Source: a virus
Virus genome (UHGV): UHGV-1359874
Reading direction: 5' to 3' (one strand)
Length of the DNA: 64,000 nucleotides
Position 1 is the stretch's first letter. The number at the start of each line of letters is the position of its first letter. Position numbers and translations under genes: made by a program. Shown in pieces: positions 2,127 through 63,646 of the stretch. The notes below the pieces were generated by a model, which saw nothing but the letters and a program-made list of their open reading frames with translations, ran no database searches and was not told the DNA's origin.

Positions 2127-3332
2127 TTGGAGAGAAAAAATACAATGCAATTAACAACTAAACAAGAGTTAGGATTAAAGCTCGCGGTGTCTCGATATAA
2201 ACATGGAGAAAAATTCACTGTTATCAGTGGATATGCTGGTTCTGGCAAGAGCACTCTAGTTAAGTTTATCATTGATGCTATTGGACTTCCACATGATGAT
2301 ATTTGTTACGCCGCATATACTGGTAAAGCAAGTGAAGTACTCCGAAAAAAGGGTAATCCAAATGCAATGACACTTCATAAATTATTGTATGATAGTAGAC
2401 CTTTACCTAATGGCGGTTTTATTAGAACAAAGAAAATTAAAATTGAATATAAACTTGTTGTGGTTGATGAATGTTCAATGGTTCCTCAAGAGATGGTTGA
2501 ACAGCTCGCAGGCTACTATGGAGTCTATGTAATTTACCTTGGAGATCCTGGGCAAATTCCGCCTATCGACCCAAGTACCGCGAATCATCTTCTGGCTAAT
2601 CCACACGTTTTCTTGGATGAAATTATGCGGCAGGCGCAAGAAAGTGAAATTATTAGACTTTCTATGAAAATTCGTAATGGTGAAGATTTTAGTTTATTTG
2701 ATGGTAAAGATGCAAAAGTAATCACTTATGATGATTTGAATACTGGTATGCTCACTTGGGCGGATATTATTCTTAGTGCGACCAATAGAACAAGACACGA
2801 GATTAATATGCAGATGCGGGAACTCACTGGACATCTTGAAGGTAAACCAGTCGATGGTGATAAAGTAATCTGTACCCGTAACTATTGGGAAGAGCTTGGC
2901 TCAGATGAAAATCCGCTTATTAATGGTAGTATTGGATATTTGAAGGATACTTATGCAAGTTATATTAAGTATCCTAGACGTGTTAAGCGGACTTGGTTGA
3001 ATATCAATAAAAATCCTGTTGAAACACTTTGCGGCAGCTTCATCAGTGAAACTGGTGAGATCTATGAGAATAAGCAGCTCGATCTTGAAATGTTTTCAAC
3101 TGGCAAACCGCAGCTAGATTCAAAGTCAGAATTTATTCTGCATAGGACTAAGTTTAGTACACCTCTTCAGTTTGAGTATGGCTACTGCGTGACTGGTCAC
3201 AAGGCGCAGGGTAGTGAGTGGGATAAGGTACTGATACTGGAAGAAAGATTTCCATTTGACAAGGAAGAACATCAACGTTGGCTCTATACAGCTTGTACTC
3301 GTGCTTCTTCTCGACTCGTTCTAGTTCGATAA
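2127..3332 (+). CDS. SF1 DNA helicase, Dda/RecD-like
   Basis: Walker A 'GYAGSGKST', Walker B 'VVVDECSM', and C-terminal motifs 'TGHKAQGSEW' and 'YTACTRA', typical of RecD/Dda-family helicases. Confidence 0.75.
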   Translation: MERKNTMQLTTKQELGLKLAVSRYKHGEKFTVISGYAGSGKSTLVKFIIDAIGLPHDDICYAAYTGKASEVLRKKGNPNAMTLHKLLYDSRPLPNGGFIRTKKIKIEYKLVVVDECSMVPQEMVEQLAGYYGVYVIYLGDPGQIPPIDPSTANHLLANPHVFLDEIMRQAQESEIIRLSMKIRNGEDFSLFDGKDAKVITYDDLNTGMLTWADIILSATNRTRHEINMQMRELTGHLEGKPVDGDKVICTRNYWEELGSDENPLINGSIGYLKDTYASYIKYPRRVKRTWLNINKNPVETLCGSFISETGEIYENKQLDLEMFSTGKPQLDSKSEFILHRTKFSTPLQFEYGYCVTGHKAQGSEWDKVLILEERFPFDKEEHQRWLYTACTRASSRLVLVR

Positions 3333-3406
3333 TAATTGGACATTTTTATTTAATGCTCTTGTTATTATTTTTAAATACTATAACAAGAGCAAAGGAGAAG
3401 ATACGT

Positions 3407-4375
3407 ATGTCAGAAATAGATAACTATAAACAAATTCCAGTAGGAAGAGGAAAAGATTATTCTAATCAAAGAATAGGAGATTTTTTGATCTTTTTCCGAA
3501 CTGAACCACCAAAAGATAAAAACCCGAATAATGCTTATTGGCTTTGTCAATGTCAAAAATGTAAAAAATATGAAATCATTCAAGCTCCAAGAATAAGTAA
3601 AGGTATTATGAAATGTTCTTGTAGAAATGATTTAACTGGAAAAACTTTTGGAAGATGGACAGTACAATATTTATGTGAACAAAAAACAAAAAAGAGAGGG
3701 AATCTTTGGCATTGTAAATGTTTATGCGGAAATGAAAAAGACGTTCCTGCTGAAACCCTTGCACGAGGAGAGAGCCAGAGTTGTGGCTGTCTTCATAGAG
3801 AATCTGTTATAAAAATGTGCCATTCAAATAGAATTAATTTAACAGGGCAACGTTTTGGGAAACTAATTGCTTTATATCCGATTTATAGTAAAGAAAAAAA
3901 TACTCATACTAAATGGCATTGCAAATGTGACTGTGGGAATGAGTGTGATATAGATATGGGCAATCTTCGTAGTGGAAAAAGTCAGTCTTGTGGATGCACT
4001 AATTCTAAGCAAGAAGAAAAAATAATTAAATTACTTATTGAAAACAATATTTCTTTTAATTATCAAGATAATAATTTTTTAGATAAAAGTAAAAAATTTG
4101 ATTTTTATATAAAAGAAAATTTAAATGAATATATTATTGAATTTGATGGTCAACAACATTTCTTTTATACTGGAACTGGATGGGACACAAAAGAACACTA
4201 TGAAAGAACTCATAAAAACGATTTGATTAAAAATAAATATTGCTTTGATAATAGTATCCCATTAATTCGTATTCCATATGATGCAGAATATACAATAGAT
4301 GATTTAAGACTTGAAACAACAAGGTTTCTTTTAACACCTGAGAATGAAGAAGAATATTATTCCAAGAGGATGTAA
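3407..4375 (+). CDS. free-standing homing-endonuclease-like protein: tandem Cys-rich modules plus a C-terminal Vsr/DUF559-like (PD-(D/E)XK) nuclease domain
   Basis: Two repeats of 'LTGxxFGxLxV...WxCKCxCGNE...SGxSQSCGC'. C-terminus 'FDFYI...IEFDGQQHF...IPLIRIPY' resembles DUF559/Vsr endonuclease cores. The true start is probably the ATG at 3407 (RBS aaggagaag), not the 3278 start in the ORF track. It is a paralog of 14573..15574. Confidence 0.6.
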   Translation: MSEIDNYKQIPVGRGKDYSNQRIGDFLIFFRTEPPKDKNPNNAYWLCQCQKCKKYEIIQAPRISKGIMKCSCRNDLTGKTFGRWTVQYLCEQKTKKRGNLWHCKCLCGNEKDVPAETLARGESQSCGCLHRESVIKMCHSNRINLTGQRFGKLIALYPIYSKEKNTHTKWHCKCDCGNECDIDMGNLRSGKSQSCGCTNSKQEEKIIKLLIENNISFNYQDNNFLDKSKKFDFYIKENLNEYIIEFDGQQHFFYTGTGWDTKEHYERTHKNDLIKNKYCFDNSIPLIRIPYDAEYTIDDLRLETTRFLLTPENEEEYYSKRM

Positions 4376-56792: not shown

Positions 56793-57160
56793 TTACCATC
56801 CATATGCAGCTTTCATTATATAGTCATAATTTAAAATATTTTCATGCCAATATGGAATTAACAGTAATTTAATATTGTGCTTACGGCAATACTCTCGTTT
56901 AAGCATATCATGATATTGCTGCTTTCTTAATCCAGCCTCGCCGCCAAATTTAGACTTAGCTTGGAAGTGTTGAATACCTTGGTATTCAATTAAGAACTCA
57001 AGTTCACCTTCGTCATCAAAAACTGCGAAATCAAAACTATCGCAAAGGATGCCCAGTCTGAGTATATAAATCTCTAAAACTATATTCTTCTTGAAACTTC
57101 AATCCAGCATCATGTAAAATATCTTCGATTTTTATTTCAGCTCTTGAACTCCTCAATTTA
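56793..57160 (-). pseudogene. frameshifted remnant of a DUF559/Vsr-like homing-endonuclease nuclease domain
   Basis: Minus-strand translation gives '...AEIKIEDILHDAGLKFQEEYSF...GHPLR*' then, after a 1-nt frame shift, 'FDFAVFDDEGELEFLIEYQGIQHF...HNIKLLLIPYW'. This is homologous to the C-terminal domains of 3407..4375 and 14573..15574. There is no ATG start and it is not in the ORF track. Confidence 0.55.
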
Positions 57161-57241: not shown

Positions 57242-58099
57242 TTAAGTAAAGAATAAGAAATCATTAATATTTCTTCCTTTACGTCGTTTCTTAATATCTT
57301 CTTGTAGTTTTACATAATATAGACCATACAAGAACGCACTAAATTTATCCTTTTTAATACTTCTTGAAGATTGTTTAAGAATAATATTAGTACCATCATT
57401 CTCTTGAACTAGATTTAACAACTGGTCACGCAAAATAGAAGTCATAATATATGGTCTTAAATAAGCATTTCTATCATCTAATCCCATATTCTGTCCAACT
57501 TTAGTAGACATTAACTTTACTTTTGCTTGTTGTTCATCTATCAAGAATTTAACTTTACCACTTGACATTTGTGTTTGAGCATAAGAATAAGCTTCTGTGT
57601 TGATTGGCGCATTAGCTTTTATAATATACATAGCATCTTGAACAGTATCCGCAGTTTTCATCTTTTTATATTTACCTTCTTCATCGTTTTCAACTCCAAA
57701 AGGAGGTAAAATATCGCCAGTATCTGGATCTACTTGAGAAATAACCATGAAATCTACTAAACCTGCACCTAGACCATTACCATCAATAGCTAAAGTTCTA
57801 GCCTTATATTGATAATAAAGTTTTTTTAAATGAATTGCTTGCAACTCAAAATGTTCTGCATCATATGTATATATATTAACTAATGATTTTAAATCAGAGC
57901 CTTGCACTTGCGGCGTGCATTTGAACACGCAAGCTTCTGTTGTACATCCAAATCGGCCAACGTCAACTCCAATAATATAATAAGCTGATTTGGCATTGCG
58001 TCCACTCCATTCTTTTTCTGCCTGATTTAGTACCCGCTGTTTATCGAACTTTTCCGCAGAGTAGAATGCATTCTCTACGTCTCCTCCCCATCTGGACAT
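57242..58099 (-). CDS. terL: large terminase, exon 3 (RNase H-like nuclease domain)
   Basis: 'YYIIGVDVGRFG' and 'LAIDGNGLGAG' catalytic-Asp motifs of the TerL nuclease domain. Confidence 0.7.
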   Translation of the reverse strand: MSRWGGDVENAFYSAEKFDKQRVLNQAEKEWSGRNAKSAYYIIGVDVGRFGCTTEACVFKCTPQVQGSDLKSLVNIYTYDAEHFELQAIHLKKLYYQYKARTLAIDGNGLGAGLVDFMVISQVDPDTGDILPPFGVENDEEGKYKKMKTADTVQDAMYIIKANAPINTEAYSYAQTQMSSGKVKFLIDEQQAKVKLMSTKVGQNMGLDDRNAYLRPYIMTSILRDQLLNLVQENDGTNIILKQSSRSIKKDKFSAFLYGLYYVKLQEDIKKRRKGRNINDFLFFT

Positions 58100-58991
58100 C
58101 TTTTATTCTTGTACTGTTTCGCTAACAGTTTCTTCAACTTTCATTGAAGGTGAGACTATATCTTCAGTATATCTCCATATATAACCTTTAAAAGTTTTTA
58201 GTTTACCTCGACAGCACTCTCCGATATGAGTTCCCTTTGAAGCTCCTATGGCTCTAGCCGCCGCGTTGGTAGAAGGATAAGTCATAATATATTTTCCATT
58301 TAAATCATATTGATTAACTTCTTTAGCCTTACCATTATTTGTATAATTCTTGGTTTCACCTAAAACAGTTTCTCTAGACCAATAAAAATTTCCTTTTAAA
58401 CTTTTTATATTTGTAAATAATTCTTGTTTAATAGTAGACTCGCTAATTCCAACAGCTTTTGCCGCTTCTGAAATTGTTCTGTATTCAGCAATTAATTTTT
58501 TATCTTTGTTAAAACAATATACATGAGGAAATTTCTTCAATTCATACTTCATTGAATGATGAACATTTTCCAGAGAAGTACACCATTCTAAATTATCTAC
58601 ATAGTTATTAGTTTTATCTCCATCAATATGATTTACTTGATTTCTCTTTGGATTATCATTTGGAATATAAGCTAAAGCAACCATACGATGAGCATAAACT
58701 CTTTTTTTAGAGCCATCTGGTAAAGTAATATTGTAACTTAAATAACCATTTTTGTAATTGTACTGGCCTTTTAAATATTTGTCAGTTTTACTATTATAAC
58801 ATTTTCCATCTTCAGTTATATAATACCAGGTACTGATATTATCAACAATAATTTGTCTCATAATAACAACCTTTCTTTTTTTCATACTGTGCTGTACTGG
58901 CTTCGCTTGAAGCCGTTAGTCGTTGAACCTTCTTCACTAGAATAATGAAGCTCGGCTGCTGATTGCCCAATCTAGTTAATTTTTAAAACAT
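58100..58991 (-). mobile_element. putative group I intron no. 2 in terL with an HNH HEG (boundaries approximate)
   Basis: The gap between TerL ATPase and nuclease fragments contains an R/P7-like core 'GGTTCAACGACTAACGG' (minus strand, plus-strand coordinates 58907-58924) and the HNH ORF. Confidence 0.6.
58103..58885 (-). CDS. intron-encoded HNH homing endonuclease (HNH plus C-terminal HTH)
   Basis: 'YAHRMVALAYIPNDNPKRNQVNHIDGDKTNNYVDNLEWCTSLEN' HNH_3 motif. 'ISEAAKAVGISESTI' NUMOD1-like HTH. Confidence 0.7.
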   Translation of the reverse strand: MKKRKVVIMRQIIVDNISTWYYITEDGKCYNSKTDKYLKGQYNYKNGYLSYNITLPDGSKKRVYAHRMVALAYIPNDNPKRNQVNHIDGDKTNNYVDNLEWCTSLENVHHSMKYELKKFPHVYCFNKDKKLIAEYRTISEAAKAVGISESTIKQELFTNIKSLKGNFYWSRETVLGETKNYTNNGKAKEVNQYDLNGKYIMTYPSTNAAARAIGASKGTHIGECCRGKLKTFKGYIWRYTEDIVSPSMKVEETVSETVQE

Positions 58992-59735
58992 TCATATTTT
59001 GCAATATTGTAGTTTAACTAGCTCTAAGGGGTTTCCAGCAATTCTCAGCAATTTAAAGAGTACATATCCTTTATACTCTCTGGCGAATGAGTCCTCTGCA
59101 TAAGTTCCCTGGAGTTTCAGAGTATCAACAAAATCTTCATCCAACAAACCTTCTATTACAGGTGTTTCATAAGTGCCACCAATAATCATAACCTCATTCG
59201 GTTCAATAATAGACTGAATCAAAAGCTCAATTAATTTAGAGTAGGCAAAAGAATTCTTCCAGCCTGCTGTAGTGATATATATCTGACTTTTGTTTACTGT
59301 CTCTTTGGGGTCACGCGTACCATCAGGAAGCAATCGGTTAACGTTTGTAGTAGGAATAACGATTTCATTCAACGCGGTTTGATCAATAAGAACGCACTCT
59401 TCCATTAGACCACCAACTCGGCGCTGACCACGAGAAGATTCACGAGCCGCGAGAATGTCAATAGAAGAACCATTTTTAAAAAGATATTTAACACTATCTT
59501 TTGATTTTGTTGATTTGCCCTTTTCCCAGTTTATTTCATTGTTCAATGCGGGGATAAGTCGGCATATCTCCTCGATCTTCGCGATCGTGATGCTAGCTGC
59601 TTGTTCTTTTCCGCCCGTCGTTACGAACAAGTTCGCACCCGGATAGAGAATACAACGAAGCATTAATACCATCATAGATAGGAATGATTTTGAATCTTTA
59701 TATTCTATTAAGTTCGCAAAACTTAATACGTTTTT
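58992..59735 (-). CDS. terL: large terminase, exon 2 (ATPase domain, post-Walker A); the 5' boundary lies within 59676..59735
   Basis: In-frame upstream extension gives 'KDSKSFLSMMVLMLRCILYPGANLFVTTGGKEQAASI', which is collinear with T4 gp17 '[29 protein letters not shown]'. Confidence 0.6.
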   Translation of the reverse strand, partial: KNVLSFANLIEYKDSKSFLSMMVLMLRCILYPGANLFVTTGGKEQAASITIAKIEEICRLIPALNNEINWEKGKSTKSKDSVKYLFKNGSSIDILAARESSRGQRRVGGLMEECVLIDQTALNEIVIPTTNVNRLLPDGTRDPKETVNKSQIYITTAGWKNSFAYSKLIELLIQSIIEPNEVMIIGGTYETPVIEGLLDEDFVDTLKLQGTYAEDSFAREYKGYVLFKLLRIAGNPLELVKLQYCKI

Positions 59736-60906
59736 TAAAAACTGCTTATAATTTCTTATAAGAATAGACTATTTCACATTTTACTTTTTAGTAAAACCTC
59801 TCCATTTCGATTTAAGGGGTTTTCACCCACCTCATAAGCTTAGGCCCTACTCCTATTGTTTCTATTATACCCCGGAAACTAAAGGATAGTCGTTGAAGTT
59901 TATTATTCTTTGTACCTAAAATGGAATCCTCCATGAGATTTATTAATTCCTCTGCAAACTTTAGAGATAGTACTTCCGTCTAAATGAAGTTCTCTTGCTG
60001 CTTCTGCACAAGAAGGAAAACTTCTAATGAATTTATCATCTAAAGTTAGCTGTTCAACTTCTTTACAAGAAGAATTAACTTTTTGAACATAATAGGCTTG
60101 TTTTACATTTTCTGAACACGTTAATAATCTTAAATTATCTAATCTATTATTTAATTTATTAGTGTCTTTATGGTCAATAATATGTCCTTCCGGAATCTCA
60201 TCTAAATCATTAAAAACACAATAAATTAATCTATGCACTAACATATCTTTTACTTGACCATTTTTACTTAGTCTAACTTTATAATATCCATTCGTTAAAC
60301 TTGGTTTTAACAATCTGAAAGTTTCATCATTTCTAATTCTTCCTTTTGAAGAAACAGAATAATGATATTTTGGAATTTTCTTCCATATCTCATTATCTAA
60401 ATTTTCTTTAAAAAATTCAGATTTTTGTCGTTCTTTAATTAAATTATTTTGATGTGCATGAGAAATATTTTCAGAATAAGTCACCCATTCAAGATTACTA
60501 ACTTCATTATTTAATTTATTCCCATCCTTATGATTTACCACAGGTAAATTATTTGGATTAGTAATAAAATATTCAGCTACTAGCCTATGAGCATAAAACA
60601 TTTTTTTATTACCATCTTTTGATAATCTATAATATTTATAACCATTTTCACCAATACTACCTTTTAAAACTTTATTAGTAGTTTTATTTAAAACATCACC
60701 ATTATCATAAATAAAATATTGTTCATACTCTTTAATTCTTTTTCTCATTTCTAGAACTCCTTTATTTAAGAATAATCTTACCTGCAGATTCCCTTGTCCA
60801 AGAAAACCTTCCTTAAGGTCTTTCACATATTTTTGGATTTAGAGTTCCTGCAATTAAAAGAGTTTGTCCAGAAAATTATATTAATTTTCGTTGGCGCATT
60901 TTCATA
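59736..60906 (-). mobile_element. putative group I intron no. 1 in terL with a double-HNH HEG (boundaries approximate)
   Basis: Splits terL at the Walker A P-loop. R/P7-like core 'CTTCAACGACTATCC' (minus strand, plus-strand coordinates 59878-59895) lies just after the HEG stop. Confidence 0.6.
59903..60826 (-). CDS. intron-encoded HNH homing endonuclease (two HNH modules plus a C-terminal HTH)
   Basis: 'YAHRLVAEYF...VVNHKDGNKLNNEVSNLEWVTYSEN' and 'LVHRLIYCVF...IDHKDTNKLNNRLDNLRLLTCSEN'. C-terminus 'AARELHLDGSTISKVCRG'. Confidence 0.7.
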   Translation of the reverse strand: MKDLKEGFLGQGNLQVRLFLNKGVLEMRKRIKEYEQYFIYDNGDVLNKTTNKVLKGSIGENGYKYYRLSKDGNKKMFYAHRLVAEYFITNPNNLPVVNHKDGNKLNNEVSNLEWVTYSENISHAHQNNLIKERQKSEFFKENLDNEIWKKIPKYHYSVSSKGRIRNDETFRLLKPSLTNGYYKVRLSKNGQVKDMLVHRLIYCVFNDLDEIPEGHIIDHKDTNKLNNRLDNLRLLTCSENVKQAYYVQKVNSSCKEVEQLTLDDKFIRSFPSCAEAARELHLDGSTISKVCRGINKSHGGFHFRYKE

Positions 60907-61161
60907 CGCACGGGGAAATGTCGCATAAACATATCGGTGTCGCATCACAATTCTAATAAATACGCGCTGATAAAAATAAAATTTAAAATGATTAGGCCCA
61001 CCATCTGGTCCCGCCATGTAATCAACCAATAAATCAGGATATTCTCTAAAGAAAGAAATTAAATTTCGTAAATTATCTAATTGTGCAAGCATTCTTTCTT
61101 CAGAGACTTCCTGCATATTTACTCTAGCTTCAGAAATGTCAAGTAATGATTGTAAACTCAC
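60907..61161 (-). CDS. terL: large terminase, exon 1 (N-terminus up to the Walker A arginine)
   Basis: 'FYFYQRVFIRIVMRHRYVYATFPRA' matches the TerL N-terminal pattern (..YQ.......V.A.R..GKS/T). The ORF then runs into nonsense toward the HEG start. Confidence 0.6.
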
Positions 61162-62488: not shown

Positions 62489-63646
62489 TTATTTATTTTT
62501 GTCCAAATATTTTTGCTTAGCCGCAAGTTTTGCTAAATTTTTCTTACTATTAGCATTGCGGCAAGTCTTGCAAATTGAATACCAACCATCTTTACTTGAA
62601 CAGTTATGTGAAAAGAATTTTTTATTAGCTAATTTATATTCGCCGCATTTAGTACATCTTTTCCAATTACCATAAGCTTTTTCAGAATAATACCAATTTA
62701 AATAATCTTCTTGAGCTTGTTCTGCAACTAATTTAGGAATTTTATTCCGCCATAATGCAGAGATATATTCGATAGAATGCTTGATACCATGAGTTTCTTC
62801 TAATTTTTTTTGAATTTCAACATTAGTCATTCCATCAATCTTATAAATCAATAGATCATAATAAAGTGGATATTCATCTTTTAAAGTTTTATCAACTAAA
62901 GTATCTAAATCTTCCATTAAATAATATAAATCATATTCAAAATTAGCATACGCCGCCTCTTTCAAAGCAGAATAATTACATAGTAATGCTTCAATATGAG
63001 CTGGATCAAAAAAACTAATAAGACCTACATTATATGGAACGCCATCTTCATCAATAGTACAATAATCATCAAATGCTGTACGAGCTATTGATTTTATTGT
63101 TGAACTAGATTTTGCTGAAGTGCGGCGATACCCATTTCTAATTACATATTGGTCTTGACGCATCTCAATAATTTGTTTTTTTAATAAAAATTTCTTTTTT
63201 CCATAAGCATTTTTATATAATTCTTCAACTTTTTCTATAGCTTGTCGCAATTCTTTTAACTCAGAAATTTCTTCTAAATCAGATTCTGTAATAGGATCTT
63301 TCGGAGTTAAGATAGTATTTTTACCCAAGTCTGATAACATATTATAAATACCATCTTCACCATTTTCTAATTTACCGCATAAACCTTCATAAGAAGTTTC
63401 TCTTTTATTTACTGTTACTAATCTATTATCTGTTAATATCTTTTTTTCTTTTCTTTCTTGTTTATCCATAGCAAAAATGATATAATCTGCTAATACTTCT
63501 AAATACTTGGGAGTTAATTTTTCTTGCGGGGTTGTGGAAATAATTTTATTAACTAATTCATTACGTTCTTGCGGAGATTGCAAGGTATAATCTAATTTAA
63601 GGGGCTGGTCAGAGCTGGTTAAGTCCTTTACATCTGTATCCGCCAT
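62489..63646 (-). CDS. Zn-ribbon protein (385 aa) with a sigma-region-4-like HTH; candidate late transcription factor
   Basis: 'DGMTNVEIQKKLEETHGIKHSIEYISALW' HTH-like. C-terminal 'CTKCGEY...CKTC' ribbon. First gene of the minus-strand late block. Confidence 0.3.
   Translation of the reverse strand: MADTDVKDLTSSDQPLKLDYTLQSPQERNELVNKIISTTPQEKLTPKYLEVLADYIIFAMDKQERKEKKILTDNRLVTVNKRETSYEGLCGKLENGEDGIYNMLSDLGKNTILTPKDPITESDLEEISELKELRQAIEKVEELYKNAYGKKKFLLKKQIIEMRQDQYVIRNGYRRTSAKSSSTIKSIARTAFDDYCTIDEDGVPYNVGLISFFDPAHIEALLCNYSALKEAAYANFEYDLYYLMEDLDTLVDKTLKDEYPLYYDLLIYKIDGMTNVEIQKKLEETHGIKHSIEYISALWRNKIPKLVAEQAQEDYLNWYYSEKAYGNWKRCTKCGEYKLANKKFFSHNCSSKDGWYSICKTCRNANSKKNLAKLAAKQKYLDKNK

Follow-up and report, generated by a model that had tools for sequence, protein, structure and literature searches.

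The terminase large-subunit gene (terL) of the virus genome UHGV-1359874 is, with high probability, interrupted by two group I introns, each of which carries a gene for an HNH homing endonuclease. We analyzed a 64,000-nucleotide (nt) stretch of this genome, hereafter the window, and arrived at this conclusion from five lines of evidence: the continuity of the three exons in homologous proteins, the homology of both inserts to the Rfam group I family RF00028, covariation in the ribozyme cores, the existence of intron-less and open reading frame (ORF)-less alleles, and purifying selection on the exons. Splicing in vivo, the endonuclease activity, and the target of that activity are predictions from the sequence. 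The phage is an SPbeta/EF1/Geobacillus-E3-like gut phage of roughly 130-140 kb, and its terL is of the SPbeta YonF type. The kind of selfish element and the kind of target gene are both well known.

The terL exons and their joined product

The ORF listing of the minus strand contained coding pieces at 61161-60823, 59675-58992, and 58099-57242, and between them lay ORFs of 307 and 260 amino acids with matches to the Pfam HNH_3 and NUMOD families; the arrangement of three coding pieces and two HNH-bearing inserts proposed in a first-pass annotation was thus plainly visible. The exon reading frames reached stops 27-28 codons into each insert. The splice sites were chosen such that the 5' site follows a U, the 3' site follows a G, and the frame continues from exon to exon. 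Joined in this way, the exons gave 1737 nt in frame, encoding a product of 578 amino acids and 66 kDa. The first-pass coordinates of the first and third pieces were correct to within 1 nt, whereas the second piece, given as 58992-59735, was the ORF from stop to stop and not the exon (59695-59073). The inserts, put at about 1.2 kb and 0.9 kb, measured 1210 and 973 nt.

The GTG start codon of exon 1 overlaps the stop codon of the yonG-like gene that precedes it, and homologues of TerL begin with MSL... at the same position. In a collection of 5.8 billion proteins, more than 100 uninterrupted proteins of 575-585 amino acids with 73-81% identity covered 100% of the spliced query. Both junctions were free of gaps in the homologue alignment (ATFPRAY followed by SKSFLSMM, and DSFAREY followed by MSRWGG), the three pieces aligned to contiguous parts of one protein, as the first reading had supposed, and the PHROG family phrog_15503 matched contiguously over junction 1. 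In the spliced RNA, ...GCGU is expected to be joined to AUUCAAAA... and ...GAGUAU to AUGUCC...; the expected complementary DNA reads would join CCCCGTGCGT to ATTCAAAATC and GCCAGAGAGTAT to ATGTCCAGATGG.

The spliced product matched PHROG phrog_2 (terminase large subunit) with an E-value of 2.2e-22. No Pfam terminase model matched the spliced product (no match at E <= 1) or the exon pieces, so that the comparison with terminase profiles proposed earlier succeeded with PHROGs and failed with Pfam; we ascribe the failure to the position of this TerL family outside Pfam's models. A profile search of PDB sequences with TerL likewise gave no match. By tblastn, genes of 32-45% identity annotated as terminase large subunit or YonF were found in 130-170 kb phages of Enterococcus, Geobacillus, Brevibacillus, and Bacillus. 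Upstream of terL in the window lies a YonG-like gene, and a portal gene lies downstream. Megablast against INPHARED phages returned just a 60-nt HNH match, indicating that there is no close isolate.

An AlphaFold (AF2) model of the spliced TerL, based on an alignment of 55 sequences (diverse representatives from a search of a representative library), had a predicted local distance difference test score (pLDDT) of 88. A first run with a shallow alignment of 12 sequences had given an unusable model (pLDDT 41), which was mended by adding the diverse representatives. The top 38 Foldseek matches in the PDB were without exception large terminases or the ATPase or nuclease domains of such proteins; T4 gp17 led (E-value 3.7e-16), and Sf6, D6E, HK97, T7, P74-26, and the herpesvirus terminase complex (6m5r/6m5u) were also among them. 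The model combined an ASCE ATPase with an RNase H-like nuclease in a two-domain fold, and R84, K88, E185, D339, and D399 were invariant across 55 diverse TerL relatives. The identity of the product as TerL rests on PHROGs, annotated homologues, and this predicted fold.

Intron 1 divides codon Y86, between R84 and K88, and in the predicted structure its site lies in the loop between the strand 77-81 and the helix 88-102. This position between two invariant residues of a strand/loop/helix element indicated that the insertion is inside the Walker A motif, where the first-pass annotation had placed it.

Table 1. Exons, introns, and intron-encoded genes of the interrupted terL (window positions)
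Feature	Position	Strand	Content
terL exon 1	61161-60906	minus	residues 1-85 and first base of codon Y86
Intron 1, group I, IA-like, with P7.1/P7.2	60905-59696	minus	1210 nt
Putative HNH homing endonuclease 1 (HNH1), I-HmuI-like	59903..60748	minus	281 amino acids, inside intron 1
terL exon 2	59695-59073	minus	residues 86-293: Walker A Lys88, ATPase body, E185
Intron 2, group I	59072-58100	minus	973 nt
Putative HNH homing endonuclease 2 (HNH2)	58103..58861	minus	252 amino acids, inside intron 2
terL exon 3	58099-57242	minus	residues 294-578: nuclease domain, invariant D339 and D399

Ribozyme cores of the two introns

In a search of the whole 64 kb in E-value mode, RF00028 was the sole significant Rfam family, and its three matches all lay inside the two inserts: 59892-59745 in intron 1 (28.8 bits), and 59108-58884 (model 5-158, 35.6 bits) and 58319-58134 (model 159-251, 30.4 bits) in intron 2. 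These scores fall short of the gathering score because each core is divided by an endonuclease ORF. The RF00028 scan suggested in the first-pass annotation was therefore negative by that threshold in the window and positive in ORF-less homologues: the ORF-less introns at the same two codons scored 84.8 and 80.5 bits in contig L237 and 75.3 and 87.4 bits in L246, and the ORF-less version of intron 1 in the close relative L002 scored 59.3 bits over the full model (threshold 50). The Rfam placements of P1/P2 of intron 1 (59892...) and of P8 of intron 2 (58319...) were artefacts that arise when a single model is fitted to a split intron, and were replaced by homologue-guided helices. The Rfam model stops past P9, at 59745, but this position was rejected as the 3' splice site of intron 1, since the protein alignment and ORF-less L002 placed the true site 49 nt downstream, past two more hairpins.

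With these helices, P1 to P10 were fully paired in both introns. Each intron had a P3-P8 core with the P3/P7 pseudoknot, a P4-P6 domain, consensus J8/7 and J6/7 segments, a predicted 5' splice site after the U of a P1 U-G pair, a final G, and a P10 with the 3' exon. Extra hairpins of the P7.1/P7.2 kind, a mark of the phage-type subgroup IA, were present between P7 and P3', and we call the introns IA-like. In intron 1, the 5' core (P1 to the 5' strand of P6) occupied 60905-60777 and the 3' core (P6' to P9.2) 59898-59706, with the HNH ORF in the P6 loop. P1 (GCGUAU/AUGCGC, with a GAAA loop) pairs exon GCGU with intron GCGC and has its U-G pair at the splice site; the 5' site reads GCGU followed by AU...AUGCGC, the 3' site reads ...AAAG followed by AUU, and P10 is AAU/AUU. 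The remaining helices were P2 (CCA..GAAAAUU/AAUUUUC..UGG), P3 (CUCUUU/GGAGAG), P4 (UGCAG/CUGCA), P5 with two extension hairpins, P7 (GACUA/UAGUC), and P8 (UUUUACU/AGUAAAA). Between P7 and P3' were P7.1 (59886-59851), P7.2 (59845-59829), and a GAAA-capped hairpin (59828-59817), and P9 was followed by two more hairpins and then the terminal omega-G at 59696.

In intron 2, P1 to P7.1, P3', and the 5' strand of P8 lay at 59063-58884, whereas P8', J8/7, P7', P9, and P9.1 lay at 58170-58113, within the 3' end of the HNH ORF, which sits in the P8 loop; the omega-G is at 58100. P1 (AGAGUAU/GUACUCU) has 7 bp and P10 (GGAUAU/AUGUCC) 6 bp, and the 3' end reads ...AAAG followed by AUGUCC. P3 is UGCUG/CAGCA, P4 UGCUGG/UCAGCA, P7 GACUA/UAGUC, and P8 CAGUAU/AUACUG; P7.1 (GGCUUC/GAAGCC) is a single hairpin at 58914-58899. 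P5, P5a (8 bp), P5b (GCAA loop), P6, and P6a were all present, the segment from J6/7 to P7 is UCAACGACUA, and J8/7 is AAGAUA, followed by UAGUC, P9, and P9.1.

Pattern scans of IMG/VR with the core motifs yielded 29 stretches of the intron-1 type and more than 120 of the intron-2 type. From the 3' half of the intron-1 type (n = 19), RNAalifold derived P7, P7.1, P7.2, P8, P9, and two distal hairpins, in which 21 of the 41 pairs had compensatory changes, including covariation within P7.2. In this structure, 95.7% of the cells were paired, compared with 39-51% with slid partners, and the covariation score was 0.415 compared with 0.08-0.11, a value that none of 500 shuffles reached. The 5' half of the intron-2 type (n = 21) gave P4, P5, P5a, P5b, P6, and P6a, with compensatory changes in 19 of 30 pairs; 98.7% of the cells of this P4-P6 domain were paired (31-43% in the controls), the score was 0.544 (0.04-0.08), and on four of five measures no shuffle out of 500 did as well, the fifth, the count of further pair types, being reached by 113. 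P1, P4, and P5 in ten sequences of the 5' half of the intron-1 type also had compensatory changes, and the U-G pair was kept in all ten introns at this site (site 86, numbered by TerL residue). In nine introns at site 293, the hand-assigned P1, P3, and P8 were all fully paired and in the right order in spite of differing sequences, as verified by script. The P1 guide of the site-293 introns covaries with the exon (AGAGUAU/GUACUCU, AGAGUUU/GAACUCU, UGAGUUU/GGACUCA, and CGUGAGU/GCUCACG). The P3-P7 and P4-P6 core pairings on which the first-pass annotation had made its group I claim depend therefore both fold and covary.

Endonucleases, alleles, and rival explanations

HNH1 contained two HNH_3, two NUMOD4, one NUMOD1, and one I-HmuI_NUMOD-like match in Pfam, resembled I-HmuI (PDB 1u3e) with an E-value of 2.3e-17, and was preceded by an AAAGGAG ribosome-binding site (RBS) 8 nt upstream of its ATG. 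Its sequence consists of two tandem NUMOD4 plus HNH_3 modules (39% identical, E-value 6e-18) before one I-HmuI-like C-terminal DNA-binding domain, and the catalytic His position reads NH in module 1 and DH in module 2. I-HmuI only nicks DNA; with its two HNH modules, HNH1 might cut both strands. In HNH2, Pfam matched two NUMOD1, one HNH_3, and one I-HmuI_NUMOD-like domain, and the E-value with I-HmuI was 1.4e-9. Both ORFs were full length and aligned to I-HmuI over its catalytic and C-terminal DNA-binding regions, and both combined an HNH motif and NUMOD/helix-turn-helix DNA-binding modules with I-HmuI similarity, which characterizes the I-HmuI type.

The mechanically called ORF of HNH2 has its first in-frame ATG at 58885, in the 5' strand of P8, whereas an RBS and ATG motif, GAAAGGTTGTTATTATG, was kept in the homologous contigs L084 and L085, suggesting that the start of HNH2 is likely at 58861. 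The ORF runs through P8', J8/7, P7', P9, and P9.1 of the ribozyme (the stretches concerned are 58100-58170 and 58861-58889, minus strand). This overlap with the 3' core, together with the ATG in P8, suggested that folding of the intron 2 RNA and translation of HNH2 are probably mutually exclusive. Each insert thus has a complete HNH gene, as had been claimed, but the non-coding flanks claimed on both sides do not hold for intron 2, which has none at its 3' end since the HNH2 ORF ends 3 nt before the 3' splice site. A scan found no intrinsic terminators inside the region, and the sigma-70 promoter/terminator scan of the region was no better than with shuffles, promoter-like sites being at chance level. 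In L085 (2281-3256), the HNH ORF of the site-293 intron has in-frame TAG codons, one of them aligned to a Gln of the window protein; either the endonuclease gene is decaying or the phage recodes TAG.

Close relatives carry other alleles of the same gene. A protein of 99% identity (P0003), uninterrupted over junction 2, is encoded by contigs L002 and L003, which are about 90% identical to the window in nucleotide sequence. Both lack intron 2 to the base (window positions 59072/58099 abut at L002 5798) and keep intron 1 minus its ORF, 934 nt of the window being replaced by 39 nt. Contig L004, with 97-99% amino acid identity, has neither intron and carries an insert of about 900 nt (2591-3501) near residue 116. 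Among these near-identical genomes, alleles without an intron, with an intron but no ORF, and with both make up a well-resolved natural series. The terL exons of the window and L002 differed by 154 synonymous and 6 non-synonymous changes, a ratio of non-synonymous to synonymous divergence (pN/pS) of 0.011, which indicated that terL is not a pseudogene. The synonymous divergence (pS) in this comparison was uneven (exon 1, 0.21; exon 2, 0.57; exon 3, 0.36), perhaps as a result of recombination or co-conversion around intron 1, which both genomes carry.

From these data, the two inserts are probably mobile group I introns of the phage IA type, and the late minus-strand transcript would fold into two ribozymes. 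A guanosine cofactor would attack after the U of the P1 U-G pair, which is position 60906 for intron 1 and 59073 for intron 2; the exon end released in this way would then attack after the terminal G (59696 and 58100, respectively) with the next exon aligned by P10, and the ligated messenger RNA would encode the 578-amino-acid TerL. By analogy with I-HmuI, each enzyme may nick or cut intron-less terL of co-infecting relatives, and repair of the cut allele would copy the intron in (homing). The intron-less and ORF-less alleles of relatives with 90-99% identity are indirect evidence for such cleavage.

Several points weigh against a terL with two splicing introns. At the gathering threshold (50 bits), Rfam found nothing in the whole window; P1 of intron 1 has just four exon pairs and two intron pairs, and its P10 just three pairs; certain phage group I introns splice in vivo only (PMC11878797); and the covariation structures were derived from the alignments on which they were scored, which inflates the controls somewhat. 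The RNAalifold structures coincide with the RF00028 consensus helices. The low Rfam scores, and the frameshift in the adjacent small gene at 57156-56793 of the window genome, would also suit introns that have decayed and no longer splice, in a terL pseudogene of a defective phage or prophage remnant. We regard such decay as very unlikely, because all core helices are intact in both introns, the ORF insertions account for the scores below threshold (together, the halves of intron 2 reach 66 bits), the exons have the low pN/pS given above, and neither HNH ORF is truncated.

It is less likely again that free-standing HNH genes split terL into three separately translated polypeptides that would assemble or be linked through split inteins, RNA splicing playing no part. 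Metagenomes do hold fractured genes with endonucleases and split inteins (PMC2677866), exon 3 starts, by chance, with an ATG (58099), and another ATG lies inside exon 2 (59675). However, the start of exon 2 falls halfway through the P-loop and the first ATG of this exon comes after K88/S89, so that its separately translated product would be without Walker A, and no Shine-Dalgarno sequence precedes either ATG. In Pfam, the two intron ORFs had no intein or Hint domain and matched just HNH/NUMOD families, the exon pieces matched nothing, and the flanks of the HNH genes are conserved, covarying group I cores. The inserts themselves were also considered as inteins, and this was rejected because the frame stops 27-28 codons into them and Pfam found no Hint or intein domain. 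Least probable of all is an assembly chimera or artefact that put intron sequences into terL; nothing specific speaks for it, and many contigs assembled independently from separate samples have the same introns at these codons.

Interruptions in the terL family and known systems

When the spliced TerL was compared by tblastn with the fetched loci, interruptions were found at about residues 86, 115, 186, 200, 226-231, 293, 359, 403, and 521, at least nine points in the YonF-type family; inserts at sites 86, 201, 231, 293, and 403 were checked with RF00028, and the others are inferred from tblastn gaps. Four interruptions were found in L228, L240, and L245, and three in L224 and L246, and the 86 plus 293 combination of the window was shared by L237, L233, and L246. 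Contig L001 also carries an insert at another terL position. Among distant TerL relatives, P0221, P0261, P0253, and P0218 carry an intein (Pfam Intein_splicing, plus LAGLIDADG in P0218). That of P0261 lies between the Walker A Lys and the next Ser/Thr (FPRAYGK, then C...HN, then T), two codons from the intron 1 site of the window, so that this P-loop is a target of protein-level and RNA-level elements alike. From the nine or more sites, the up to four interruptions per gene, the intein near site 86, and the differing sets at 97-99% TerL identity, we tentatively suggest that the YonF-type terL of this clade could be an unusually crowded battlefield of selfish elements, perhaps with ongoing intron-endonuclease interference between phages that co-infect in the gut and with HNH1 as a possible double-strand cutter. 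If this is true, HNH1 would be a new endonuclease architecture. The data support, without changing, the picture in which homing endonucleases target the most conserved motifs of phage core genes.

The DNA polymerase gene of Bacillus phage SPO1 likewise has a group I intron, in which the HNH/NUMOD gene for I-HmuI occupies a peripheral loop. The host gene of that intron differs from that of the window introns, HNH1 has a duplicated NUMOD4-HNH module, and HNH2, unlike I-HmuI of SPO1, overlaps the 3' ribozyme core. The td, nrdB, and sunY introns of T4 (IA2) have in common with the window introns P7.1/P7.2 between P7 and P3' and an endonuclease ORF in a peripheral loop, which in td is the P6 loop; the T4 intron ORFs encode GIY-YIG endonucleases. 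The T4 introns sit in nucleotide-metabolism genes, whereas those of the window sit in terL. A terminase group I intron was reportedly described in Lactobacillus phage LL-H in the 1990s.

The Enterococcus phages EF1 and EF5 (MF001358 and MF001361) have a TerL of the same family, with 43% identity, and their gene has three interruptions, the third of which is at most 2 nt from the intron 2 site of the window and contains a related HNH gene annotated '# Phage intron'; the other two inserts, at about residues 201 and 231, pass RF00028 at sites that are empty in the window. EF1 and EF5 are without the Walker A intron. Gene callers fragment an intron-split terL, an essential gene, and the EF1/EF5 exons were deposited merely as 'hypothetical proteins'. 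The PHROG families phrog_15503 and phrog_24618, listed with 'unknown function', are N- and C-terminal fragments of this TerL family, and many 50%-identity clusters in the representative library start at profile positions 292, 402, 200, or 178. Such exon-sized clusters look like database pollution by fragments of intron-split terL. Recognition of the introns restores the complete TerL, a standard marker for phage taxonomy and for prediction of the packaging type, and we see the chief worth of the present case in such corrected annotation, together with the allele series described above.

Terminases are among the usual intron targets of phages (PMC3984707). In the Bastillevirinae, group I introns number two or three in some terL genes, and their splicing has been demonstrated (PMC11878797). 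The Bacillus phages of this group, such as SIOphi and phiAGATE, likewise have a terL with one to three such introns, a number of which contain HNH ORFs, and splicing was shown in vitro and/or in vivo (PMC11878797). They are Herelleviridae myoviruses, in contrast to the SPbeta/EF1/Geobacillus-E3-like phage of the window, and their TerL belongs to phrog_675 and not to the YonF type; the insertion sites differ too. In the Jug gut jumbo phages, group I introns divide terL into two to three fragments, and metatranscriptome reads confirmed splicing (PMC12880540). These are Bacteroides phages of 360-402 kb, unrelated to the window phage, and their introns, unlike those of the window, are mostly short (about 206 nt) and ORF-less (PMC12880540). 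The first-pass view that two introns in a single terminase gene are rare was thus not upheld, since multi-intron terL genes are common in the clade and already published (PMC11878797 and PMC12880540).

Two neighboring genes were also noted. A gene for 119 amino acids between terL and the portal gene (56793-57156, minus strand) is intact in L002 (6743-7102) and L003, whereas the window copy is frameshifted by a 4-nt insertion into fragments at 57156-57037 and 56906-56793; its product had no Pfam match. On the minus strand at 62489-63646, a 385-amino-acid protein matched a PHROG 'sigma factor' family (E-value 9e-50), and its Cys-rich C-terminus had weak endonuclease VII, HNH, and Lar-like matches.

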